A DNA stretch of 64,000 nucleotides from an uncultured Pelagibacteraceae bacterium. GTDB taxonomy: Bacteria > Pseudomonadota > Alphaproteobacteria > Pelagibacterales > Pelagibacteraceae. Of the stretch, positions 15,745 to 50,116 are shown piece after piece. Made by a program: the position numbers and the translations under genes. The stretch is taken from assembly GCA_902627745.1 (NCBI GenBank), contig CACOKG010000001.1, positions 391 to 64,390 on the forward strand, in the 5' to 3' direction. Each line of letters starts with the position of its first letter. Position 1 is the first letter of the stretch. The notes beneath the pieces were generated by a model. The model ran no database searches and was not told the DNA's origin. It worked only from the letters and a program-made list of their open reading frames with translations.

Positions 15745-16398
15745 TTATGCTTTTTTTGTTTTAATTGGTTTTTTTCTTTTAGGATAACAACTAGTACAAA
15801 TTTTACAAGATATCCCAAAACATTCTCTGGCTTTACAATATTCTCTTCCATAATATATAATTTGCAAATGAAGTTTGTTCCAATTTTTTTTAGGAAATAA
15901 TTTTTTTAAATCTTGTTCAGTTTGAACGACATTCTTTCCATTGGTTAAACCCCATCTTTGTGCCAATCTATGTATGTGTGTATCGACCGGAAAAGCAGGG
16001 TATCCAAAACCTTGAGACATGACAACACTAGCAGTTTTATGTCCAACACCAGGGAGATTTTCTAATTCCTCAAATGTCCTTGGTACCTTACCATTGTACT
16101 TATCAATTAATATTTTTGATAAATGATAGATACTTTTAGCTTTCACGCGAAAAATTCCTATCTTCTTTATTAATTTTTCAATTTTTTTTCTTCCTAATTT
16201 AACAAAGTGTTTAGGTTTATAAAATTTTGGATATATATTTTTAGTGACATTATTTACATTCACATCTGTACATTGTGCAGAAAGTAATACAGAAACCAAA
16301 AGAGTAAAAACATTTCTGCTTTTAAGAGGAACAACTATTTTTGGATAAGTTTTGTTTAGAATTTTTAGTATTAATTTTGCCCTTTGAATTTCGCTCAT
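15745..16398 (-). CDS. nth: Endonuclease III
   Basis: LLSAQCTD, HhH LPGVGHKTA, VDTHIHR, C-x6-C-x2-C Fe-S cysteines. Confidence 0.95.
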   Translation of the reverse strand: MSEIQRAKLILKILNKTYPKIVVPLKSRNVFTLLVSVLLSAQCTDVNVNNVTKNIYPKFYKPKHFVKLGRKKIEKLIKKIGIFRVKAKSIYHLSKILIDKYNGKVPRTFEELENLPGVGHKTASVVMSQGFGYPAFPVDTHIHRLAQRWGLTNGKNVVQTEQDLKKLFPKKNWNKLHLQIIYYGREYCKARECFGISCKICTSCYPKRKKPIKTKKA

Positions 16399-17174
16399 TT
16401 ATTGAAATTCATGAGATCTCTCATGGAATAAAGACCTGCCTTTTTATTCATGAGCCATTTTGCTGCTAACAAAGCTCCCTCAGAGTAAAGTGCCCTGTCA
16501 TAAGCTTCATGATTTAAGGTAATTATTTCTTTACCACTTGAAAATTTTACTTCGTGTTCTCCAATAACCTTTCCTCTTCGAATAGAGTTAAAATTTATTT
16601 TTTTACTATATGGAAAAGTTTTCTTATTTAAATATTTTTTACCCAATAAAGTATAAAAATTTTTTTTCTTTCCTATGGCAATTCCTTTACCCAACATTAA
16701 TGCTGTCCCCGATGGATAATCTTTTTTATGTTTGTGATGAATTTCAAAAATTTTACTCAAGAAATTTTTTCCCAATGAACTTGAGGCAATTTCTGTTAAA
16801 TACATTAATAGATTAATACCCAAACTCATATTCCCTGCTTTTAAAATTGGTATTTTTTTTGAAAACTTTTTAATAAGAATTTCTTCTTTTTTATTAAAAC
16901 CAGTTGTTCCTATTACAACTCTTTTTTTTAATTTAACCGCTAACTCTAAAACTTCAAATGTACATTTAGGAATCGTAAAATCAATTATTAGGTTTGCATT
17001 TTTAAACGAGTCTTCATTGTTAACACTAAGTTTAATACCATTAATTTTTTTGTTCATATGTTTGTTTTCTGTCAAGGATACTATTTTAAACAAACTATTA
17101 GATTTTACAGTCCTAATTATCTGTTGGCCCATTCGACCCATACATCCTGTTATGGCTAGATTTATTTTTTTCAT
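16395..17174 (-). CDS. dapB: 4-hydroxy-tetrahydrodipicolinate reductase
   Basis: GCMGRMG, IDFT, VIGTTG, EIHHKHKKDYPSGTA. Confidence 0.96.
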   Translation of the reverse strand: MKKINLAITGCMGRMGQQIIRTVKSNSLFKIVSLTENKHMNKKINGIKLSVNNEDSFKNANLIIDFTIPKCTFEVLELAVKLKKRVVIGTTGFNKKEEILIKKFSKKIPILKAGNMSLGINLLMYLTEIASSSLGKNFLSKIFEIHHKHKKDYPSGTALMLGKGIAIGKKKNFYTLLGKKYLNKKTFPYSKKINFNSIRRGKVIGEHEVKFSSGKEIITLNHEAYDRALYSEGALLAAKWLMNKKAGLYSMRDLMNFNK

Positions 17175-17186
17175 TTAAAAATAATT

Positions 17187-17909
17187 TTAAGATTTAAACG
17201 AATATAATATTATTGCCTTTAGGGCAATAAATGCATCTTTTAAACCAATCTTTTTTCCATCCTCATATGATCTACCATTGTAAGTAATTGGTACCTCATA
17301 AAACTTAAATCCTTTTTTGGATAATTTGATCGTGATTTCTGGTTCAAATGCAAAAGTTTTTTCTTGAAGAGTTATACTTTTTAAAATTGAGCTTTTAAAA
17401 ACCTTGTATCCAGTTTCCATATCAGTCAAATTTAAATTTATCAATGAATTACAAAAAAAAGTTAAAATTTTATTTGCTAGATAATGCCAAAAAAAATGAA
17501 TTCTAGTGTATTTACCTCCACCTAAAAATCGAGAACCATAAACAACGTCTGCATTTGTTTCAAAAAAGGGAAGCAATAATTTGTTATAATCATATGGATC
17601 ATATTCAAGATCTGCATCTTGAATAATTGTAATATCTCCCGTTATGTGTTGAATTGCAGTTTGAATTGCGGCTCCCTTACCTAGATTTTTTTCATGAAAA
17701 AAAACAACAGTTTTTTCTTTATTCTTTATTTCATTTAACAATTCTTTTGTTCCATCATCTGAGGAGTCATCAACGATGATAATTTCATAATCAACAATTT
17801 TATAGTTGTTAAGACTTTCAATTATTTTTTTTAAAATAGCCTGAATTGTTTTTTTTTCATTATAACAAGGAATGATTACTGAAAGTTTGAAATTTTTTCT
17901 ATCAATCAT
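17187..17909 (-). CDS. GT2 glycosyltransferase, DPM1 / polyprenyl-phosphate glycosyltransferase-like
   Basis: SVIIPCYNE, VDDSSDDGT, NLGKGAA, QDADLEYDP, VYGSRF, TDMETGYK. Confidence 0.9.
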   Translation of the reverse strand: MIDRKNFKLSVIIPCYNEKKTIQAILKKIIESLNNYKIVDYEIIIVDDSSDDGTKELLNEIKNKEKTVVFFHEKNLGKGAAIQTAIQHITGDITIIQDADLEYDPYDYNKLLLPFFETNADVVYGSRFLGGGKYTRIHFFWHYLANKILTFFCNSLINLNLTDMETGYKVFKSSILKSITLQEKTFAFEPEITIKLSKKGFKFYEVPITYNGRSYEDGKKIGLKDAFIALKAIILYSFKS

Positions 17910-18165
17910 CTTTTAACTTTTTATTGTGAATATCTTCATTTTGTTTTTTTTTATTTTTTATTTTTTTAATTACTATTCTTAAAGGGTATATGATAATTCC
18001 AAATATTGAGATAATCCCAATAAATATGTAAGCTATTATTGTCCCTAGCATTGGAAGGAGTGGTCCCAATCCTATATAAGCGTGTGCATTAGTAAATGTT
18101 ATTAAGACAATAAGAATCTGTAATAAAAGTATTTTAATCAATAAATTTGAGTTTATCTTTTTCAT
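17902..18165 (-). CDS. Small membrane protein: signal peptide, one TM helix, basic tail
   Basis: Hydrophobic N-terminus ending AHA|YIGLGP, second hydrophobic helix, Lys-rich tail; overlaps both neighbours. Confidence 0.7.
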   Translation of the reverse strand: MKKINSNLLIKILLLQILIVLITFTNAHAYIGLGPLLPMLGTIIAYIFIGIISIFGIIIYPLRIVIKKIKNKKKQNEDIHNKKLKDD

Positions 18166-19468
18166 AAAAATCACCTATATATATACCATCTTTCTTAAAG
18201 GAAAGATTCTTATCATAGCGATTTGATGGATAAAAAAAATCGAAATTTGAAGAATAAAGATATTTTCGTTTACAATTTTTAAAAAAATCATTTTCACAAA
18301 TAATTTTGAATATTTCTCCTTGGCTTGAACTTTGTACAAATAGATCATTACCTAAAAATTGAAGTCTGCCTCTAGTCGGACTAGCAAAATTTTCAGCTTC
18401 GAAAATGCTAGCAATGCTATTATCCTCTAAATTAATTTTGACAATTTTTGAATTTTTGGAACTAAAATTATTATTATCAAATACATACAAAAATCCATCC
18501 TGATGTAATCTTGGTGAGTGTTGTTTTGCAAAAAGATCAACCACAATATGATTAATATTATTATTGTCTAAGTCGTAAAATAAAATCATATCTAGAGACC
18601 TAAATGATAATATTAATATATTCTCAGACGTGAGAGAAATTTTTTTATTTATTAAGTTTATTTCATTTACACCTAGTTTTTGAATATCATTTAAATGAAG
18701 AGGATCGACACAAACCTCATCATCACTTAAAATTTTTCTATCTAAAACATTTTTAAATTCGTCATTTTTAATTAAAATTTCTATTAAACTAAAATTACTG
18801 ATTACCTTACCATTCAAACTGTTTAAAATTAATATGGTATCAAAAGCTGAATTTTTAATGTTACAATTTCTTAGCTCACTATTTTTTAAATCTCCATTTA
18901 AATCATTTGGTAAAGAGACAAATTTTCTTGAGGGAATAAATATTTTATTCTTCTCAACATCTACCCAATGATGATTTAAGCTATTGTTTCTCCAAACAAT
19001 ATTTCCAAATTTGTCTATTCGATAAATACCTTTTGTCTCAAATTTACCAATTAATAAATCCCCATTTTCAAATAAGTGGTAAGGAATAATTTTAGAATTA
19101 TTCCTGAAATTCGATAAGTCCCATGACCATATTACTTTATCAGGAGTTTCCATTAAAATAGGTTGAGTTTGATCATGTTTTACCAATAGATAATGATCAA
19201 ATTTTTCCTTAGGTCTATTGTCAAAATTAAAATTTGAATTAAAGCCAGATTTATTTTTGTCTAAAACTAAACTTTTTCTTGTATCTCTATCACCAAATTT
19301 TTTTTTTAAATTTATATTTAATCTTGTTTCAACATCATTAATAATAAAAGATAATCCTTCGTGAATTCTTTTTAATTTTAGATCATTACTTAAAAATCCA
19401 AGTAAAAAGATAAAAAATAATATTGATAATATAAAACAGAACTTTAAAAGTTTATCTATAATGTCCAT
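18134..19468 (-). CDS. Arylsulfotransferase (ASST)-family protein with an N-terminal membrane anchor
   Basis: NHH, DPLHLND, LSFR, KQHSP and FDN occur in ASST order; WSW and IVW beta-propeller-like segments. Confidence 0.8.
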   Translation of the reverse strand: MDIIDKLLKFCFILSILFFIFLLGFLSNDLKLKRIHEGLSFIINDVETRLNINLKKKFGDRDTRKSLVLDKNKSGFNSNFNFDNRPKEKFDHYLLVKHDQTQPILMETPDKVIWSWDLSNFRNNSKIIPYHLFENGDLLIGKFETKGIYRIDKFGNIVWRNNSLNHHWVDVEKNKIFIPSRKFVSLPNDLNGDLKNSELRNCNIKNSAFDTILILNSLNGKVISNFSLIEILIKNDEFKNVLDRKILSDDEVCVDPLHLNDIQKLGVNEINLINKKISLTSENILILSFRSLDMILFYDLDNNNINHIVVDLFAKQHSPRLHQDGFLYVFDNNNFSSKNSKIVKINLEDNSIASIFEAENFASPTRGRLQFLGNDLFVQSSSQGEIFKIICENDFFKNCKRKYLYSSNFDFFYPSNRYDKNLSFKKDGIYIGDFYEKDKLKFID

Positions 19469-20498
19469 AATTTTAAAATTATTAAGAGATCAAAAGAGGT
19501 TTAACAAGTTATTTCTTTTTTTATCAAATTTTGAAAATAATTTTTTTCAAATAGATAGACTTAAAATTAAAAATCCTGTGTTCATTTGTGGAATGGCAAG
19601 ATCTGGAACTACTTTTTTAACTCATTTATTAGATTCATCGAATTATTTTGGTACCTTTAAATATAAATATCTTCCATTCTATAAAATACCAATTTTTTGG
19701 AATTACATAAATAATTTATTTTATTTAAGTAAAAAAAAAAGACAGAGACTACATGGTGATAATTTAAAGGTAAATATTAATAGCCCAGATTCATTTGAAG
19801 AATTAATTTGGAAGAATTTTTTAGAGGATTATGATTTGAAAGGTTATTGGCAAAAAGTTGAGTATGATGAATTTAGTGATTTATCTAAAAATTTAGAATT
19901 ATTTATTAAAAAAATAATTCACATTAATAAGGTAGATAGATATTTATCGAAAAATAATAATAATATTTTTAGGATTAAATATTTATTAAAGAAATTTCCA
20001 GATTCAAAAATAGTCGTTGTTATAAGAAACCCTGTTGACTTAGCTTTTTCTTCCGCAAAAGTTCATTTAAAATTTCTAAAATATCATAAAACCATTAAAA
20101 ATTTTTCTGAGGAATTGAGCGAATTAGGGCATTATGAATTTGGATTTCAAAGAAAAATGTTTGATTTGACAGGAAATAAATCATTAAATCCACAAAATAT
20201 AAGATTTAAAACAATTAATTTATATTTAGATAGATATCTAGATTTATTAAATTTTATTAGCAAAAACTATTCCAAAGAAATCGAGGATAAAAAGATTGTC
20301 ATTTTGAATTATGATAACTTAAAAAAAATTAATGATTTATCGAAATTATTTCAATACTTAAACATTGATTTAAATGAAGATATGCGAAGTTATTTTGATA
20401 GTAACTTTGTATTAAACACTTATCAAAGAAATGAAAAATTTAAAAAAAAAATTGTTATGAAAGAATTTATAAATTTATCTAAATATTCAATAGTTTGA
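19461..20498 (+). CDS. PAPS-dependent sulfotransferase
   Basis: 5'-PSB loop FICGMARSGTT and 3'-PB IRNPVDLAFS; no signal peptide. Confidence 0.88.
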   Translation: MSIILKLLRDQKRFNKLFLFLSNFENNFFQIDRLKIKNPVFICGMARSGTTFLTHLLDSSNYFGTFKYKYLPFYKIPIFWNYINNLFYLSKKKRQRLHGDNLKVNINSPDSFEELIWKNFLEDYDLKGYWQKVEYDEFSDLSKNLELFIKKIIHINKVDRYLSKNNNNIFRIKYLLKKFPDSKIVVVIRNPVDLAFSSAKVHLKFLKYHKTIKNFSEELSELGHYEFGFQRKMFDLTGNKSLNPQNIRFKTINLYLDRYLDLLNFISKNYSKEIEDKKIVILNYDNLKKINDLSKLFQYLNIDLNEDMRSYFDSNFVLNTYQRNEKFKKKIVMKEFINLSKYSIV

Positions 20499-20507
20499 AT
20501 TATTTTT

Positions 20508-20675
20508 TTAAGCCACAAAATTATACACAATTAAAACAGAAGCTATGATAACTATCCAAATCAAAGAGTTTTTGAAAAATACTTTTGATTTTGAGTTTGA
20601 TCTTAAAAATTCAGGTAAAACAAGAATTAAAACCGCTATTAAAAAAATAGCTGGAACTATTTCTTCTAATCCCAT
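20508..20675 (-). CDS. Small two-TM membrane protein (55 aa; not in the ORF track)
   Basis: Manual translation MGLEEIVPAIFLIAVLILVLPEFLRSNSKSKVFFKNSLIWIVIIASVLIVYNFVA*; starts 3 nt after the dnaJ stop. Confidence 0.7.
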   Translation of the reverse strand: MGLEEIVPAIFLIAVLILVLPEFLRSNSKSKVFFKNSLIWIVIIASVLIVYNFVA

Positions 20676-20678
20676 TTT

Positions 20679-21815
20679 TTAACCATTCCAGAAACTTTTA
20701 GCTTTTTGAAAAAATTTTTTTATGCTTGGGTTCGATTTTTCATTTTCTATTTTTCTAAATCGTTCTAATAAATCTTTCTGCTCTTTATTTAAAAATACTG
20801 GAACTTCAGTTTTGACTTGAACATATAAGTCACCAAAATCACCCCTTCGCATAAACGGCATACCTTTGCCCTTTAATCTAAATTGCTTCCCATCTTGAGT
20901 TCCGTCTGGTATTTTAATTTTTGCTTTTTTTCCATCGATTGTAGGTATTTCTATCGTTGTACCTAGAGCTGCATCAGCAATTGAAATTGGAAATTCAAAA
21001 AATAAATTGACATCAGATCTTTTAAATAATTCATGAGATTTAACATTTATAAATAAATATAAATCTCCACTAGTACCCCCTCTTGTTCCAGCTTCACCTT
21101 TGCCAGCAAGTCTTATTCTCGTCCCATCATCTACACCTTTAGGTATTGTTACAGATACTTTTTTGTTTGTTTGTTTATTACCTTGCCCATTACAATCTCC
21201 ACACGGATTGGTAATTTCTTCACCGCTTCCTGAACATTGAGGACAAGTTTGTTGGACTGTAAAGAAACCTTGATTAGATCTTACTCTTCCATTTCCTCCA
21301 CAATAAGTACATCTTTCTGGACTTGAACCTGGTTTTGAACCATTTCCTTTACAAGTATTACATTTTTCAGACGTAGAGAATTGAATGTTCTGTTTTTTTC
21401 CAGTGTATGCCTCCTCTAGTGTAATTGATAAATCATATCTTAGATCTGAACCTCTGTTATTTGAGCTTCTTCTTGAACTTCTTCTACCTCCACCACCAAA
21501 GTCTCCAAAAAAATCTTCAAAAATATCCGAGAAATCTGCTCCGCTAAACCCTCCAAAACCTCCAAAACCACCTCTACCACCACCACCGTTTTCAAAAGCA
21601 GCATGGCCAAAGTTATCGTAGTTTTCTTTTTTAGATTTGTCAGAGAGAACACCATAAGCCTCACTGGCTTCTTTAAATTTATCTTCTGCAGATTTATCAC
21701 CAGGATTTTTGTCAGGGTGGTATTTAACGGCTAATTTTCTGTAGGCTGATTTTAGTTCATCAGGGCTTGCGCTTTTACTTACTCCCAAGACATCATAATA
21801 ATCTCTTTTAGCCAT
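20679..21815 (-). CDS. dnaJ: Chaperone DnaJ
   Basis: HPD J-domain, G/F-rich region, four CxxCxGxG repeats. Confidence 0.98.
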
Positions 21816-46212: not shown

Positions 46213-48282
46213 TTTAAAGTATACAAGAAGGAAGTTGAAGTAGCAGGTAAGAAGATAAGTTTAGAAACAGGTAAAGTAGCAAGACAGGCAGACGGAGCAA
46301 TCATAGCAACATGTGGGGAGACAGTCGTTTTAGCAACTGTCGTTGGTGCAAAAAAAGTTAATCCAGACATGGATTACTTTCCATTGTCTGTAAATTATCA
46401 GGAAAAATATTACGCAGCAGGAAAAATTCCTGGTGGATATTTTAAAAGAGAGGCAAGACCAACTGAGAGTGAGACATTAATCTCAAGATTAATTGATAGA
46501 CCGATCAGACCATTATTTCCTGATGAATTTAAAAATGAAGTTCAGTTGTTACCAACTGTAATTTCTTACGATAAAGAAAATGAAGCAGATATTTTATCAA
46601 TTATTGCATCTTCTGCAGCTTTAGCTATATCAGGAATGCCATTTATGGGCCCTATCGGAGCTTCTAGAGTTGGATATATCGATGGCAAATATGTTTTGAA
46701 TCCGTCAAAAACTGAACTTGAAAAATCAAAATTAGATTTAGTTGTTGCTGGAACAAAAGACGCTGTGCTTATGGTTGAGTCAGAAGCGAGCGGGTTAACA
46801 GAGGAAGAGATGTTAAATGCAGTAAAATTTGGGCATAAAGGATTTGTTTCAGTGATTAAAATGATAGAGGAACTGGCTAAAGAATGTAGGAAACCTGAGT
46901 GGACTGTTGAAAAGAAAGATTTATCTGATGTGAGGAAAAAACTAGAGGTAACTTTTACAGAAGATCTTAAAAAAGCATTTGCGACAAGAGACAAACAAGA
47001 CAGATCAAATCAAATTTCAGAAATTACTGATAAAGCAAAAAAACTTTATGAGGAAGACGAAAACTATACAGATCTTGATGTAAATTCTGAACTAAAAAAT
47101 CTTGAAAAAACAATTGTCAGAACAGATATTTTGAAAAATAAAAATAGAATTGATGGCAGGGGTTTGTCTGATGTAAGGCCAATCTCATGTGAGGTTGGTG
47201 TTTTGCCAAGAACACATGGCTCTGCTTTGTTTACAAGAGGCGAAACGCAAGCAATCGTAACTGCTACTTTAGGCACATCTGATGACGAACAAAGAATTGA
47301 GAGCTTAGATGGATTACAAAGGGAAAGGTTTATGCTTCATTATAATTTTCCACCTTTTTCTGTTGGTGAGACAGGTAGAATAGGAACTGGTAGAAGAGAG
47401 ATTGGTCATGGTAAATTAGCATGGAGAGCAATTCATTCTTCATTACCCTCAAAAGAATCGTTTCCTTATACTTTTAGAGTAGTATCAGAAATAACAGAGT
47501 CCAATGGTTCTTCATCAATGGCTACAGTTTGTGGAACATCACTTGCACTAATGGATGCGGGAGTGCCAATAAAAGAACCAGTTGCAGGTATAGCAATGGG
47601 TTTAATTAAAGAGGGTGATGATTTTAGCGTATTATCAGATATTTTAGGTGATGAGGATCATCTGGGTGATATGGATTTTAAAGTTGCCGGAACTAAAGAA
47701 GGAATTACTTCACTACAAATGGATATCAAAATTACCGGTATTACTTTTGAAATAATGGAGCAAGCATTAAGCCAAGCTAAAGATGGGAGACTTCATATTT
47801 TAGGAGAAATGAATAAAGCATTATCAGCATCAAGATCTGACGTTGGAAAACATACTCCAAAAATGGAAAAAATTAATGTCGATAAGAAAGACATTGCTGC
47901 TGTTATTGGAAAAGGTGGTGCAACAATCAGGGAGATTGTAGAAAAATCAGGTGCCAAAGTTGATGTAAATGATGAAGGAGTTGTAACAGTTGCTGCTCCA
48001 GATGAAGAGTCTAGAAGTGTAGCTATGCAAATGATTAAAGACATCACAGCAAAAGCCGAATTGAATAAAATATATTCAGGTAAAGTAATGAAGATTATGG
48101 AGTTTGGTGCATTTGTTAATTTTTTAGGAAAACAAGATGGTTTAGTTCACATCTCTGAACTTGCTGACAAAAGAGTTGCAAAGGTAACAGATGTTGTGAA
48201 AGAGGGAGATGAGGTAAAAGTAAAAGTAATTGGCTTTGACAGAGGGAAGGTTAAACTTTCAATCAAACAGGCAACAACTTGA
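46210..48282 (+). CDS. pnp: Polyribonucleotide nucleotidyltransferase (PNPase)
   Basis: [42 protein letters not shown] and S1 domains. Confidence 0.98.
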
Positions 48283-48292
48283 TGGTCTTAAA

Positions 48293-49066
48293 TTGAGTCA
48301 TGATGTAAAAAAATTTAAACTATTAAAAAAAATTATTGGGGCTCTTGGATATAAATTAATAGATAAGAAGTCAGCAAAGACAGAGAGATTAATTGATAAC
48401 TTTATATTCAAAATAGAGGATTTACTTAAAGTTCTTATAAATAAAAAAAAAATTACTAAGATTCTACAAATTGGTGCAAATGACGGAAAAAGTGATGATT
48501 TTTTATATAAATCTTTTAACAAAGATCTTGAGGGAATTCTTTTGGAACCAATGGAAGATGCTTATGCAAGTTTAAAAAAAAATTATGAACAATTTAATAA
48601 AGTTAGGTGTTTAAATTTGGCGTTAGATATAATGGACCAGGAAAAAATTTTTTTTTCTATTAACCCAAAATATTTTGAGCATTATAAAAAAAAATTTAGC
48701 GATAAAAATGTTAAATGGTTAAACATATTATCATCCTTTCATAGAGAACATCTAGTTAGACATGGTATAAAAGATAAACACATCATTTCAAAAAACATAA
48801 AATGTATTTCATTTAAAACTTTGATAGATAGATATGATTTTCAGGATTTAGATTTACTTATAATTGATACCGAAGGTTATGATTACACTTTAGTCAATAA
48901 CTTTATTGAGACAATGGATATGAGACCATTAATTATTTTTGAGTGGATACATGGTGAAAATGATGAGGTAAATAAATTGTTGAAAAAATTAATCGAGAAT
49001 AATTATGAATTTTTCAAAATTGGAAGAGATTTAATATGTTTTCAAAAAAATTTTTTATTCAATTGA
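48293..49066 (+). CDS. FkbM-family SAM-dependent methyltransferase
   Basis: LQIGANDG, LLEP, DLLIIDTEGYD, IIFEW. Start uncertain; TTG 48293 chosen to avoid overlap with pnp. Confidence 0.85.
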   Translation: MSHDVKKFKLLKKIIGALGYKLIDKKSAKTERLIDNFIFKIEDLLKVLINKKKITKILQIGANDGKSDDFLYKSFNKDLEGILLEPMEDAYASLKKNYEQFNKVRCLNLALDIMDQEKIFFSINPKYFEHYKKKFSDKNVKWLNILSSFHREHLVRHGIKDKHIISKNIKCISFKTLIDRYDFQDLDLLIIDTEGYDYTLVNNFIETMDMRPLIIFEWIHGENDEVNKLLKKLIENNYEFFKIGRDLICFQKNFLFN

Positions 49067-49081
49067 TAATTTTAAAAGATT

Positions 49082-50116
49082 ATGAAAATTCTCAGATTAA
49101 CGTATAAAAATGTTCTAAAACACTTATTTTTTAAGATTAATAAATCTTATTCATTAAATAAAAAACAACAAAACTTTTATAAAAAAAAAAATCTATTAAT
49201 AGGTAAAAAAAATTATCAAATTTTCACGCTTAAAAATGGAAGTATCTTTATGGATACTTCTGAGTCAAAATATTTTTATATTTATAAAAACTTTATCTTA
49301 CAAGATCTTTCAATTGATATTAAAGGTTTAAATAAAAATTCAAATATATTTAAATATGGAATAACTAAATTTTGTAAAAAATTTGATTTAGATGTTATTT
49401 CTATTATTTCAGGACGTGATGCTAAAGATAATTATTATCATTGGTTAATTGATGTATTACCTAGATTGATAATTTTAGAAAAGCAATTTAGAAAAAAAAA
49501 TATGAATTTACTTGTGCCAGATTATAACATTTCTTATCAAAAAGAGTCATTAAATTGTTTTTTAAAAGATAAGAAAATTAATTTGATTAGTCTTTATAAT
49601 CATAAGTTTTGTCAATTTAAAAAGATTATTTTGTGTTCAAATAATGAAAATTTTGAATATTTTAATTTTGCTCTTTTATCAAAAATGAAAAAAAAAATTT
49701 TACATCAAGCTAAAAAAAAAAACATTTTTTTTGGTAAAACTTTTGAAAAAATATATATTAGTCGTATTGATTCAAGAAACATAAGATCTTTTAAAGACAA
49801 TGTAAAAATTGAAAAAGTTTTAATTAAAAAAGGATTTAAAATATTAGTTTTATCAAAATACTCTTTTTTAGAAAAAGCTGTGATCTTTAATGGAGCAAAA
49901 ATTATAATTGGACTTCACGGAGCAGGTTTGGCCAATATAGTTTTTTCAAAAAGAAAAACAAAGATTATAGAGATCACTTCAAACAAATGGCCTGATATGT
50001 TTGAAAAGTTATCTAAATGCATGAATTTGTCTTATAAAAAAGTTATAATTAGTAATATTGATAAAAAAACTAACTTGGTAAATCTTTCAATAAATAAATT
50101 TATGAAATATTTTTAG
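49082..50116 (+). CDS. Glycosyltransferase family 61 (DUF563)-like protein
   Basis: NYYHWLIDVLPRL, IYISR, IIGLHGAGLAN, IIEI. Confidence 0.82.
   Translation: MKILRLTYKNVLKHLFFKINKSYSLNKKQQNFYKKKNLLIGKKNYQIFTLKNGSIFMDTSESKYFYIYKNFILQDLSIDIKGLNKNSNIFKYGITKFCKKFDLDVISIISGRDAKDNYYHWLIDVLPRLIILEKQFRKKNMNLLVPDYNISYQKESLNCFLKDKKINLISLYNHKFCQFKKIILCSNNENFEYFNFALLSKMKKKILHQAKKKNIFFGKTFEKIYISRIDSRNIRSFKDNVKIEKVLIKKGFKILVLSKYSFLEKAVIFNGAKIIIGLHGAGLANIVFSKRKTKIIEITSNKWPDMFEKLSKCMNLSYKKVIISNIDKKTNLVNLSINKFMKYF

Follow-up and report, generated by a model that had tools for sequence, protein, structure and literature searches.

To our knowledge, how bacteria sulfate envelope molecules outside the cytoplasm, where 3'-phosphoadenosine 5'-phosphosulfate (PAPS) is absent, is an open question. 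It is raised anew by a locus in a stretch of 64,000 nucleotides (hereafter the window) from an uncultured Pelagibacteraceae bacterium of the SAR11 group (assembly GCA_902627745.1, contig CACOKG010000001.1), in which a PAPS-dependent sulfotransferase (ST), a PAPS-independent arylsulfate sulfotransferase (ASST) and a small membrane protein, the microprotein, are encoded together between dapB and dnaJ. An earlier note on this DNA had grouped them with a glycosyltransferase of family 2 (GT2) into a four-gene cassette coupling two sulfotransferase chemistries across the membrane. We propose that the module consists of the three former genes and works as a tyrosine-sulfate shuttle: the likely cytoplasmic ST would load a tyrosine of the microprotein, and the likely periplasmic ASST would pass the sulfate on to an acceptor in the envelope. 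We put the probability of this reading at about 55%. Its parts in the window are the following:

17902..18165, minus strand: microprotein precursor, 87 aa, core part, with two hydrophobic segments (ATG at 18165; alternative GTG at 18174)
18076..18078, minus strand: codon of the invariant tyrosine (residue 30, at position +1 of the predicted mature protein), the sulfate carrier proposed from the sequence
18134..19468, minus strand: ASST-family PAPS-independent sulfotransferase, 444 aa, beta-propeller, core part (PF05935, 33.8 bits, cut-off 24.2)
18518..18520, minus strand: codon of His317, counterpart of the catalytic His436 of E. coli AssT (profile alignment to PDB 3elq, QH on Q435-H436)
19461..20498, plus strand: PAPS-dependent sulfotransferase (Sulfotransfer_3), 345 aa, core part (PF13469, 64.7 bits)
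19590..19613, plus strand: 5'-phosphosulfate-binding loop of the ST, residues 44-51 (aligns with the TPST1 loop)
20025..20051, plus strand: 3'-phosphate-binding motif of the ST, R189 to S197 (aligns with the TPST1 Arg...Ser motif)

The three-gene module and its parts

The coupling of the two chemistries, as the earlier note had claimed it, is borne out by the distribution of the genes. One draw of 400 genomes of the genus was searched with an ASST profile and an ST profile (ST, E<=1e-20). The ST profile matched 23 genomes and the ASST profile 29, or 25 once four weak matches had been dropped before counting (G013, G079, G218 and G259; G000 designates the window's own assembly, other G numbers genus genomes and L numbers fetched loci). 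Both enzymes were found in 22 genomes, the ASST only in three and the ST only in one. Two of the dropped matches look like an unrelated lipoprotein propeller, and the locus of G259 holds no ASST open reading frame (ORF). The module is inserted at many unrelated sites in these genomes. Among 26 loci anchored on the ASST, a line of evidence that covers genus genomes only, 15 hold the ASST, the microprotein, a 120-aa membrane protein and the ST, seven are without the membrane protein only, and four have the ASST alone.

Anchoring on the ST gives the same picture at a wider range. Scanning genome contigs with an ST alignment yielded at least 398 confirmed relatives, of which the best 80 were used; removal of two duplicates (L069 = G023, L070 = G241) left 78 loci, which span Alpha- and Gammaproteobacteria, Thermodesulfobacteriota, Nitrospinota, Bacteroidota, Acidobacteriota, Planctomycetota and others. 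The ASST is present in 68 of these loci, the microprotein in 72, both in 66 and the membrane protein in 64, and 8 of the 12 incomplete loci lie near contig ends. The profiles behind these counts were refined with matches from the same loci; the pattern was already visible with first-pass profiles of the microprotein and membrane protein seeded from genus loci alone. Co-occurrence of ST, ASST and microprotein, which are linked in several phyla, is far beyond chance, and the linkage across genomes on which the earlier note had made its idea depend is thereby present for these three genes. Several loci (L077, L084, L085, L088, L093, L106 and L109) carry two full-length ASST genes per one ST and one microprotein, as expected if a single carrier feeds several acceptor-specific enzymes. 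In a locus of G109 (L045:6199-11927), an ASST lies in a sugar-nucleotide cluster without the microprotein or this ST subfamily, with an adenosine 5'-phosphosulfate (APS) kinase and a weak Sulfotransfer_1 protein nearby.

Of the partners, the microprotein, to which the earlier note had given no role, is conserved best and makes the best candidate for the carrier. It matches no Pfam family over the cut-off, and only unnamed clusters in the ESM Atlas. Its parts follow one another as an n-region, a hydrophobic h-region, Ala-x-Ala and Tyr-x-Gly; in the window, a signal peptide is predicted for residues 1-29, ending in Ala-His-Ala, with a mature start of Tyr-Ile-Gly-Leu-Gly, one membrane segment and a basic tail. 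Signal-peptide cleavage would thus occur immediately before the tyrosine. Tyr30, Gly32 and Pro61 are invariant in 86/86 aligned microproteins and positions -1 and -3 are small in 84/86, while the stretch from Tyr1 to Pro32, as counted from the mature start, has zero gaps and 1 charged residue in 2752 positions. Gly, Pro, Ala and Ser account for 58% of the first 12 residues, vs 29% in the rest, and Lys and Arg behind Pro32 average 5.3. A profile search at E<=0.001 returned 3503 representatives (50% identity), the best 150 of which all carry the tyrosine at the same spacing. In four profile matches from the loci, the ORF call does not include the tyrosine; in two of them it lies a single codon further upstream, and the other two are truncated at contig ends. 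Ratios of nonsynonymous to synonymous polymorphism (pN/pS) of about 0.15-0.28 against five relatives point to purifying selection. Pairwise distances of the microprotein follow those of the ST (Spearman 0.65) more closely than those of the ASST (0.44), kinship not being removed from either value. Between the two carriers that the earlier note had considered, a peptide fits the microprotein and its invariant tyrosine, and a lipid-linked sugar finds no support. One homologue (P0200) contains a tandem duplicate of the Ala-Tyr-Ile-Gly-Pro-Gly unit and hydrophobic segment. Scoring of 7991 longer candidates for a fused form gave 1 match, which looks like a chance fusion with a transketolase-type fragment.

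The ASST resembles enzymes of established chemistry. Its model (predicted local distance difference test, pLDDT, of 86) matches Cpz4 best (PDB 9kf4/9kf6; Z 26.0, root-mean-square deviation 3.3, 301 aligned residues), then AssT (Z 24.0), other propellers scoring at most 19.5. A profile of the region has Cpz4 (E 3e-13) and AssT as sole matches, and a single-sequence search of the PDB returned none. One paper gives His436, Arg374, His356, Asn358, His252 and Thr501 as the AssT active site, a ping-pong mechanism, and aryl sulfates and tyrosyl peptides as ASST substrates, a sugar hydroxyl being sulfated by Cpz4 (PMC13426309). In the alignment to 3elq, H317 corresponds to H436 and R290 to R374; H258-x-N260 falls on the H-x-N of Cpz4, and H167 is equated with AssT His252 by motif order and invariance alone. 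The motifs read by the earlier note (NHH, HLND, SFR and QH) are all present in the window and conserved across homologues: His167, His258, Asn260, Ser288 and His317 are invariant in 89/89 ASSTs, and Arg290 is kept in 82/89. The membrane anchor, likewise claimed, corresponds to a hydrophobic stretch at residues ~7-27 (Kyte-Doolittle, KD, hydrophobicity), and 85/89 homologues have such an N-terminal segment. Cysteines number 2 or 4 in 78/89 ASSTs and are scattered in number in STs. Because of this segment and the even cysteine counts, the ASST is probably anchored and likely faces the periplasm.

The ST, by contrast with the ASST, shows no membrane segment in the window protein (KD hydrophobicity) and is likely cytoplasmic, in agreement with the soluble PAPS enzyme of the earlier note. 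In its phosphosulfate loop, R47 and G49 are found in 81/81 homologues and T50 in 77/81; R189, P191 and S197 of the 3' motif are found in 81/81. The fold of its model (pLDDT 91) matches Stf9 (Z 18.4), Stf1 (16.6) and TPST2 (15.4), with seven entries of tyrosylprotein sulfotransferases (TPSTs) coming directly after Stf9/Stf1 at Z 14.8-15.4. When the ST profile was compared with the PDB, the 7 best matches were all tyrosylprotein sulfotransferases (E 5e-11 to 7e-5); single-sequence searches gave weak matches only.

The 120-aa membrane protein, which has three helices and a basic C-terminal tail, precedes the ST in most module loci and is flagged as fused to its N-terminus in 18/104. Its basic tail would put the ST in the cytoplasm. 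Its ESM Atlas matches are unnamed clusters and the N-terminal part of sulfotransferases of 469 aa. Trp30 of the microprotein is present in 70/72 loci with this partner, vs 2/18 without a detected one, and both of these exceptions have a hydrophobic N-terminal ST extension that looks by eye like a fused partner. In a rapidly built ST tree with 81 rows (a motif filter left out 13 more, and 1 was too short), absence of the partner needs 3 changes, at least 2 of them forced by starred branches, so that the covariation of Trp30 with the partner rests on few independent events. Partner-less versions arose in at least two lineages. Together, these data suggest a contact between the microprotein and the ST side of the module, and a partner that is dispensable.

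The proposed shuttle, its sulfate supply and rival readings

Our model comprises three steps. The likely cytoplasmic ST would move sulfate from PAPS onto the microprotein tyrosine, giving Tyr-O-sulfate; from there, sulfate would go to the ASST through a sulfo-His317 intermediate, in a ping-pong reaction as in AssT; finally, the ASST would hand it to an acceptor in the envelope that is probably a glycan. Tyrosine fits as ASST donor because ASSTs use aryl sulfates and it is the only phenol of the module. Loading could take place in two ways: the uncharged, Gly/Pro-rich first 12 residues might act as an arm that swings back across the membrane and is used repeatedly, or sulfation might precede export of the precursor, each copy being used once. 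The glycan acceptor is weakly hinted at by several genus loci with glycan-related neighbors (GT4, AT3-SGNH, sulfatase-fold and deacetylase genes); the earlier note had considered LPS and protein as acceptors too, with a possible change of phage receptors. We infer the topology, the Tyr-O-sulfate intermediate and the transfer through sulfo-His317 from these comparisons.

A number of observations weigh against this model. Its weakest step is the meeting of tyrosine and ST, since the tyrosine would face the periplasm after cleavage and the ST the cytoplasm, and the 120-aa partner, the obvious candidate for a passage, was not found in G000 (best E 0.012; assembly 61% complete). No transporter or MBOAT-like channel is conserved in the module, nor is any acceptor gene among the neighbors within 2.5 kb of 104 loci. 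Four genus ASST loci are without the other parts, two of which stop at contig ends. The divergent orientation of ST and ASST, with overlapping starts, means that their co-expression is not given. TPSTs favor acidic residues near the tyrosine, and the context of the microprotein tyrosine is uncharged; moreover, the ST is just 12-16% identical to TPSTs, its nearest folds being the mycobacterial Stf9/Stf1. At the position of AssT Thr501, the window's ASST family has Arg, and the active enzyme Cpz4 has Gln.

The supply of PAPS is a further difficulty. Profile searches for cysC, cysNC and sat products, a point raised by the earlier note, which had seen no PAPS-synthesis gene in the window, found no APS kinase, Sat or CysD in G000 with its completeness of 61%. 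APS-kinase family proteins occur in 22/26 module-linked genomes, and also in 36/50 controls, without clear enrichment in the former; most matches are a short 135-aa form of putative activity. On the other side, a route to PAPS is plausible. In G000, aprA scores over the cut-off and lies beside aprB-like and aprM-like genes, and a CysQ-like gene reaches 196 of 228.8 bits, under the cut-off. Among the 22 genus module genomes, AprA was found in 17, Sat in none and CysD in none, and near-complete genomes have both AprA and the APS-kinase family in 4/4 cases. Since the searches gave no ATP sulfurylase, the route would start with AprBA, from sulfite and AMP, and lead to PAPS through an APS-kinase-like protein. 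One study describes this reaction of AprBA, with APS as its product; its list shows cysC, cysQ and aprA for the majority of seven SAR11 strains, though its text counts cysC as absent (PMC5069961). A genus survey describes a conserved aprA-aprB pair and no assimilatory sulfate reduction (10.64898/2026.04.03.716430).

Two gene arrangements were observed in this context. In a pair common in SAR11 (L151:968-1749, also L152, L153, L164 and L165), the 135-aa APS-kinase-like gene is followed by one for a 124-aa HxGH nucleotidyltransferase-like protein (PF01467, 19.7 bits, under the cut-off); the two could be a minimal sulfate-activation pair, which was not found in G000. In L174 and L205 (G000:C15), aprM-aprB-aprA-like genes precede a 116-aa ORF and a gene for a membrane protein that we take to be TauE/SafE sulfite-exporter-like, and the CysQ-like gene is on the same contig.

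Other readings of the same parts have to be weighed. The topological difficulty would disappear if the ST sulfated a diffusible phenol or pyrone that crosses the membrane to the ASST, a mechanism used by Cpz4, the nearest relative of the ASST by structure, with the microprotein tyrosine as final acceptor or structural subunit; ASSTs do sulfate tyrosyl peptides in vitro (PMC13426309). We consider this reading unlikely: among 480 ORFs within 2.5 kb of the 104 loci, whose clusters were judged by eye, no enzyme that would make a carrier or shuttle recurs, and no exporter does; the invariant residue is phenolic, is never replaced by Phe and keeps a constant spacing from the membrane anchor, which suggests chemistry; and the microprotein distances, with kinship not removed, follow the ST best. 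The sulfated microprotein might instead be an end product, a signal or surface tag, from which the ASST removes or recycles sulfate. The TPST-like profile of the ST agrees with this, as does the known bacterial precedent of RaxST/RaxX, where a tyrosine of a 60-residue peptide is sulfated before export; the reading is improbable all the same, given that the microprotein stays anchored without a variable exposed part to act as a signal, that no peptide exporter recurs and that the ASST keeps its full transferase site. We judge just as improbable an inward relay, in which the ASST would move environmental aryl sulfate onto the tyrosine and the ST, running in reverse, would convert adenosine 3',5'-bisphosphate (PAP) to PAPS in cells without ATP sulfurylase. 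It would work with these three parts in this topology and agrees with the lack of a conserved acceptor gene, and the absence of Sat and CysD from all 22 genus module genomes would be explained; against it, transfer from Tyr-sulfate to PAP is uphill, most module genomes have AprA and an APS-kinase-like gene, and the module is common also in taxa that, from their names, are expected to make PAPS. In addition, PAPS would be of little use in a genus that, according to the survey, cannot reduce sulfate (10.64898/2026.04.03.716430).

Doubts may also concern the window's lineage itself. The divergent overlap, the missing 120-aa partner and the altered motif Tyr-x-Gly-Leu-Gly would be accounted for if the inverted ST and its neighbors were decaying or independently used genes. 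Slightly less credible still than the two preceding readings, this one must contend with intact catalytic residues throughout, a microprotein apparently under purifying selection, partner-less versions in more than one lineage, and the same divergent layout of the ST kept at three genomic sites (L007, L039 and L040) with ASST identity down to about 40%. Hardly credible, finally, is a lipid-sugar version of the relay, in which a polyprenyl-phosphate sugar made by the GT2 would be sulfated by the ST and serve as carrier to the ASST. The GT2 is of the polyprenyl-phosphate type and belongs to the commonest other neighbor family within 2.5 kb; that family nevertheless occurs in just 10/104 loci, the gene is missing even from the same site in close relatives, and the GT4 that takes its slot in L068 also sits there without the module in L182. 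Furthermore, ASSTs use alkyl sulfates, such as those of sugars, poorly as donors. The carrier that the earlier note had favored is hence dropped, and we retain the tyrosine-sulfate shuttle.

The insertion at dapB-dnaJ

The module of the window lies in a site bounded by core genes and shared with accessory ones:

16395..17174, minus strand: dapB, left flank (name read from sequence; orthologues in 31/36 genus genomes)
17187..17909, minus strand: GT2 glycosyltransferase, polyprenyl-phosphate-sugar synthase type, accessory slot (PF00535, 123 bits)
20508..20675, minus strand: 55-aa two-helix membrane ORF (from hydrophobicity), closing the insert on the right; found at empty dapB-dnaJ sites too
20679..21815, minus strand: dnaJ, right flank (name read from sequence)

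The four ORFs that the earlier note had placed between dapB and dnaJ are all real, Pfam names three of them, and each overlaps its neighbor as described: GT2 and microprotein by 8 bp, microprotein and ASST by 32 bp, ASST and ST by 8 bp. The 55-aa ORF has to be added, and the opposite strand of the ST had been missed. The ST is on the plus strand, whereas ASST, microprotein and GT2 are on the minus strand in line with dnaJ and dapB; ASST and ST are divergent, with starts that overlap head-to-head, and the four genes therefore cannot form one transcript. No NCBIfam model scored over the cut-off for any of the five ORFs. The presence of the 55-aa ORF at empty sites makes it part of the host backbone; it is found downstream of dnaJ in many, not all, genus genomes and matches no family over the cut-off.

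That the module is an insertion is supported by 30 dapB loci (G000 and 29 relatives), in agreement with the earlier note. It directly follows dapB in 2/30, other inserts do so in 9/30, and 19/30 pass straight into the 55-aa ORF or dnaJ; on contigs from two RNA runs, dapB is likewise joined directly to the side of dnaJ. With 11/30 loci occupied, including the GT4 without the module in L182, the junction is a hot spot for small inserts, and a 478-aa ORF is inserted there in three genomes. While the three-gene module comes and goes at this site, as had been supposed for the whole cassette, the GT2 is inconstant: it accompanies the module at dapB-dnaJ in the window, L065 and L066, is missing in L006 and L067, and is replaced by a GT4 in L068 (3/6 with GT2). 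Since relatives lack it or have another gene in its place at this site, the GT2 is a passenger, and its membership of a four-gene cassette does not hold, given its presence within 2.5 kb in so few other loci. It shows no membrane segment (KD hydrophobicity), its best NCBIfam matches (AglJ, PgfS, ArnC and PpgS) are all under the cut-off, and it might help to build the acceptor in this strain. Mosaic identities to the window (ST 96% and ASST 84-85% in L065/L066; ST 87% and ASST 92% in L067) suggest recombination within the cassette.

No meaningful repeats or att-like ends were found. A promoter scan was uninformative (22 sites vs 31.4 expected), and one terminator-like site, vs 0.7 expected, lies at the 3' end of the GT2 gene. 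Low-mismatch metatranscriptome contigs from 3 RNA runs cover parts of ASST and ST, with word shares of 0.07-0.14 and possible DNA carry-over. A second small surface-glycan insert, comprising an FkbM-type methyltransferase and a GT61, occupies positions 48230-50116 (plus strand) of the window between genes read as pnp and fabI.

Known systems and the place of the module

If the shuttle is real, it would provide the natural donor for a whole ASST subfamily; for most enzymes of this kind, one paper states, neither natural substrates nor roles have been identified (PMC13426309). The donor would be concrete: a Tyr-sulfate on a roughly 50-residue protein, whose family is large, as seen above, and is without a Pfam model. 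For SAR11, the module suggests that APS made by AprBA serves beyond detoxification, and that about 6% of the sampled genus genomes encode a surface modification particular to certain strains. Taken to its full extent, the idea is that of a widespread trans-membrane sulfation machine, a sulfuryl counterpart of DltX, in which a microprotein matured by signal peptidase would swing its N-terminal tyrosine between a TPST-like ST and a periplasmic ASST, and of which SAR11 would keep a stripped three-gene version that turns waste sulfite, through AprBA and APS kinase, into surface sulfation without activating seawater sulfate. We advance this broader view tentatively, as somewhat more apt to fail than to hold. 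A literature search by titles and abstract starts, mostly outside subscription papers, found no description of the three-gene module, which is likely an undescribed way to sulfate the cell surface.

Each part has relatives from which the module departs. TPSTs are membrane-anchored Golgi enzymes acting on tyrosines in acidic context. TPST1/2 share PAPS dependence with the ST and are the best profile matches of its family, but their identity to it is low, the window's ST is without a membrane segment and its candidate tyrosine lies in an uncharged context; the ST may nevertheless act as TPSTs do. RaxST/RaxX, compared by description, would have PAPS-dependent tyrosine sulfation in common with the module; RaxX, however, is a secreted end product, and no exporter recurs here. 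With AssT of E. coli CFT073 (PDB 3elq), the ASST shares the propeller fold, the counterparts of His436 and Arg374 and an invariant His...His-x-Asn series. AssT itself is soluble, periplasmic and encoded with DsbL/DsbI (PMC13426309), whereas the window's ASST is anchored and tied to a PAPS-dependent ST.

Two systems come closer as wholes. In caprazamycin biosynthesis, Cpz8, a shuttle and Cpz4 perform a two-step sulfation (PMC6731281). As proposed here for the module, a PAPS-dependent ST and an ASST encoded together act in series via a carrier; the Cpz system, however, uses a triketide pyrone as carrier and yields an antibiotic, whereas the module has no recurring carrier synthase, a membrane-anchored ASST and a tyrosine microprotein as constant partner. 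DltX and the C-terminus of PatA are described as acyl-tyrosine shuttles of MBOAT-SGNH envelope acylation with the motif FXYXXF (PMC12148441). The likeness lies in a membrane microprotein with an invariant tyrosine, which is proposed to take an activated group from an enzyme fed on the cytoplasmic side and bring it to a transferase outside the cytoplasm that forms a covalent intermediate. By contrast, the module would carry a sulfuryl instead of an acyl group, its tyrosine lies at a processed N-terminus (Tyr-x-Gly) and not in a C-terminal FXYXXF, and it has no MBOAT or SGNH protein, a soluble loading enzyme and sulfotransferases as partners. By analogy, the module would work like Cpz8/Cpz4 in its chemistry and like DltX/PatA in its carrier logic, while lacking defining features of both.

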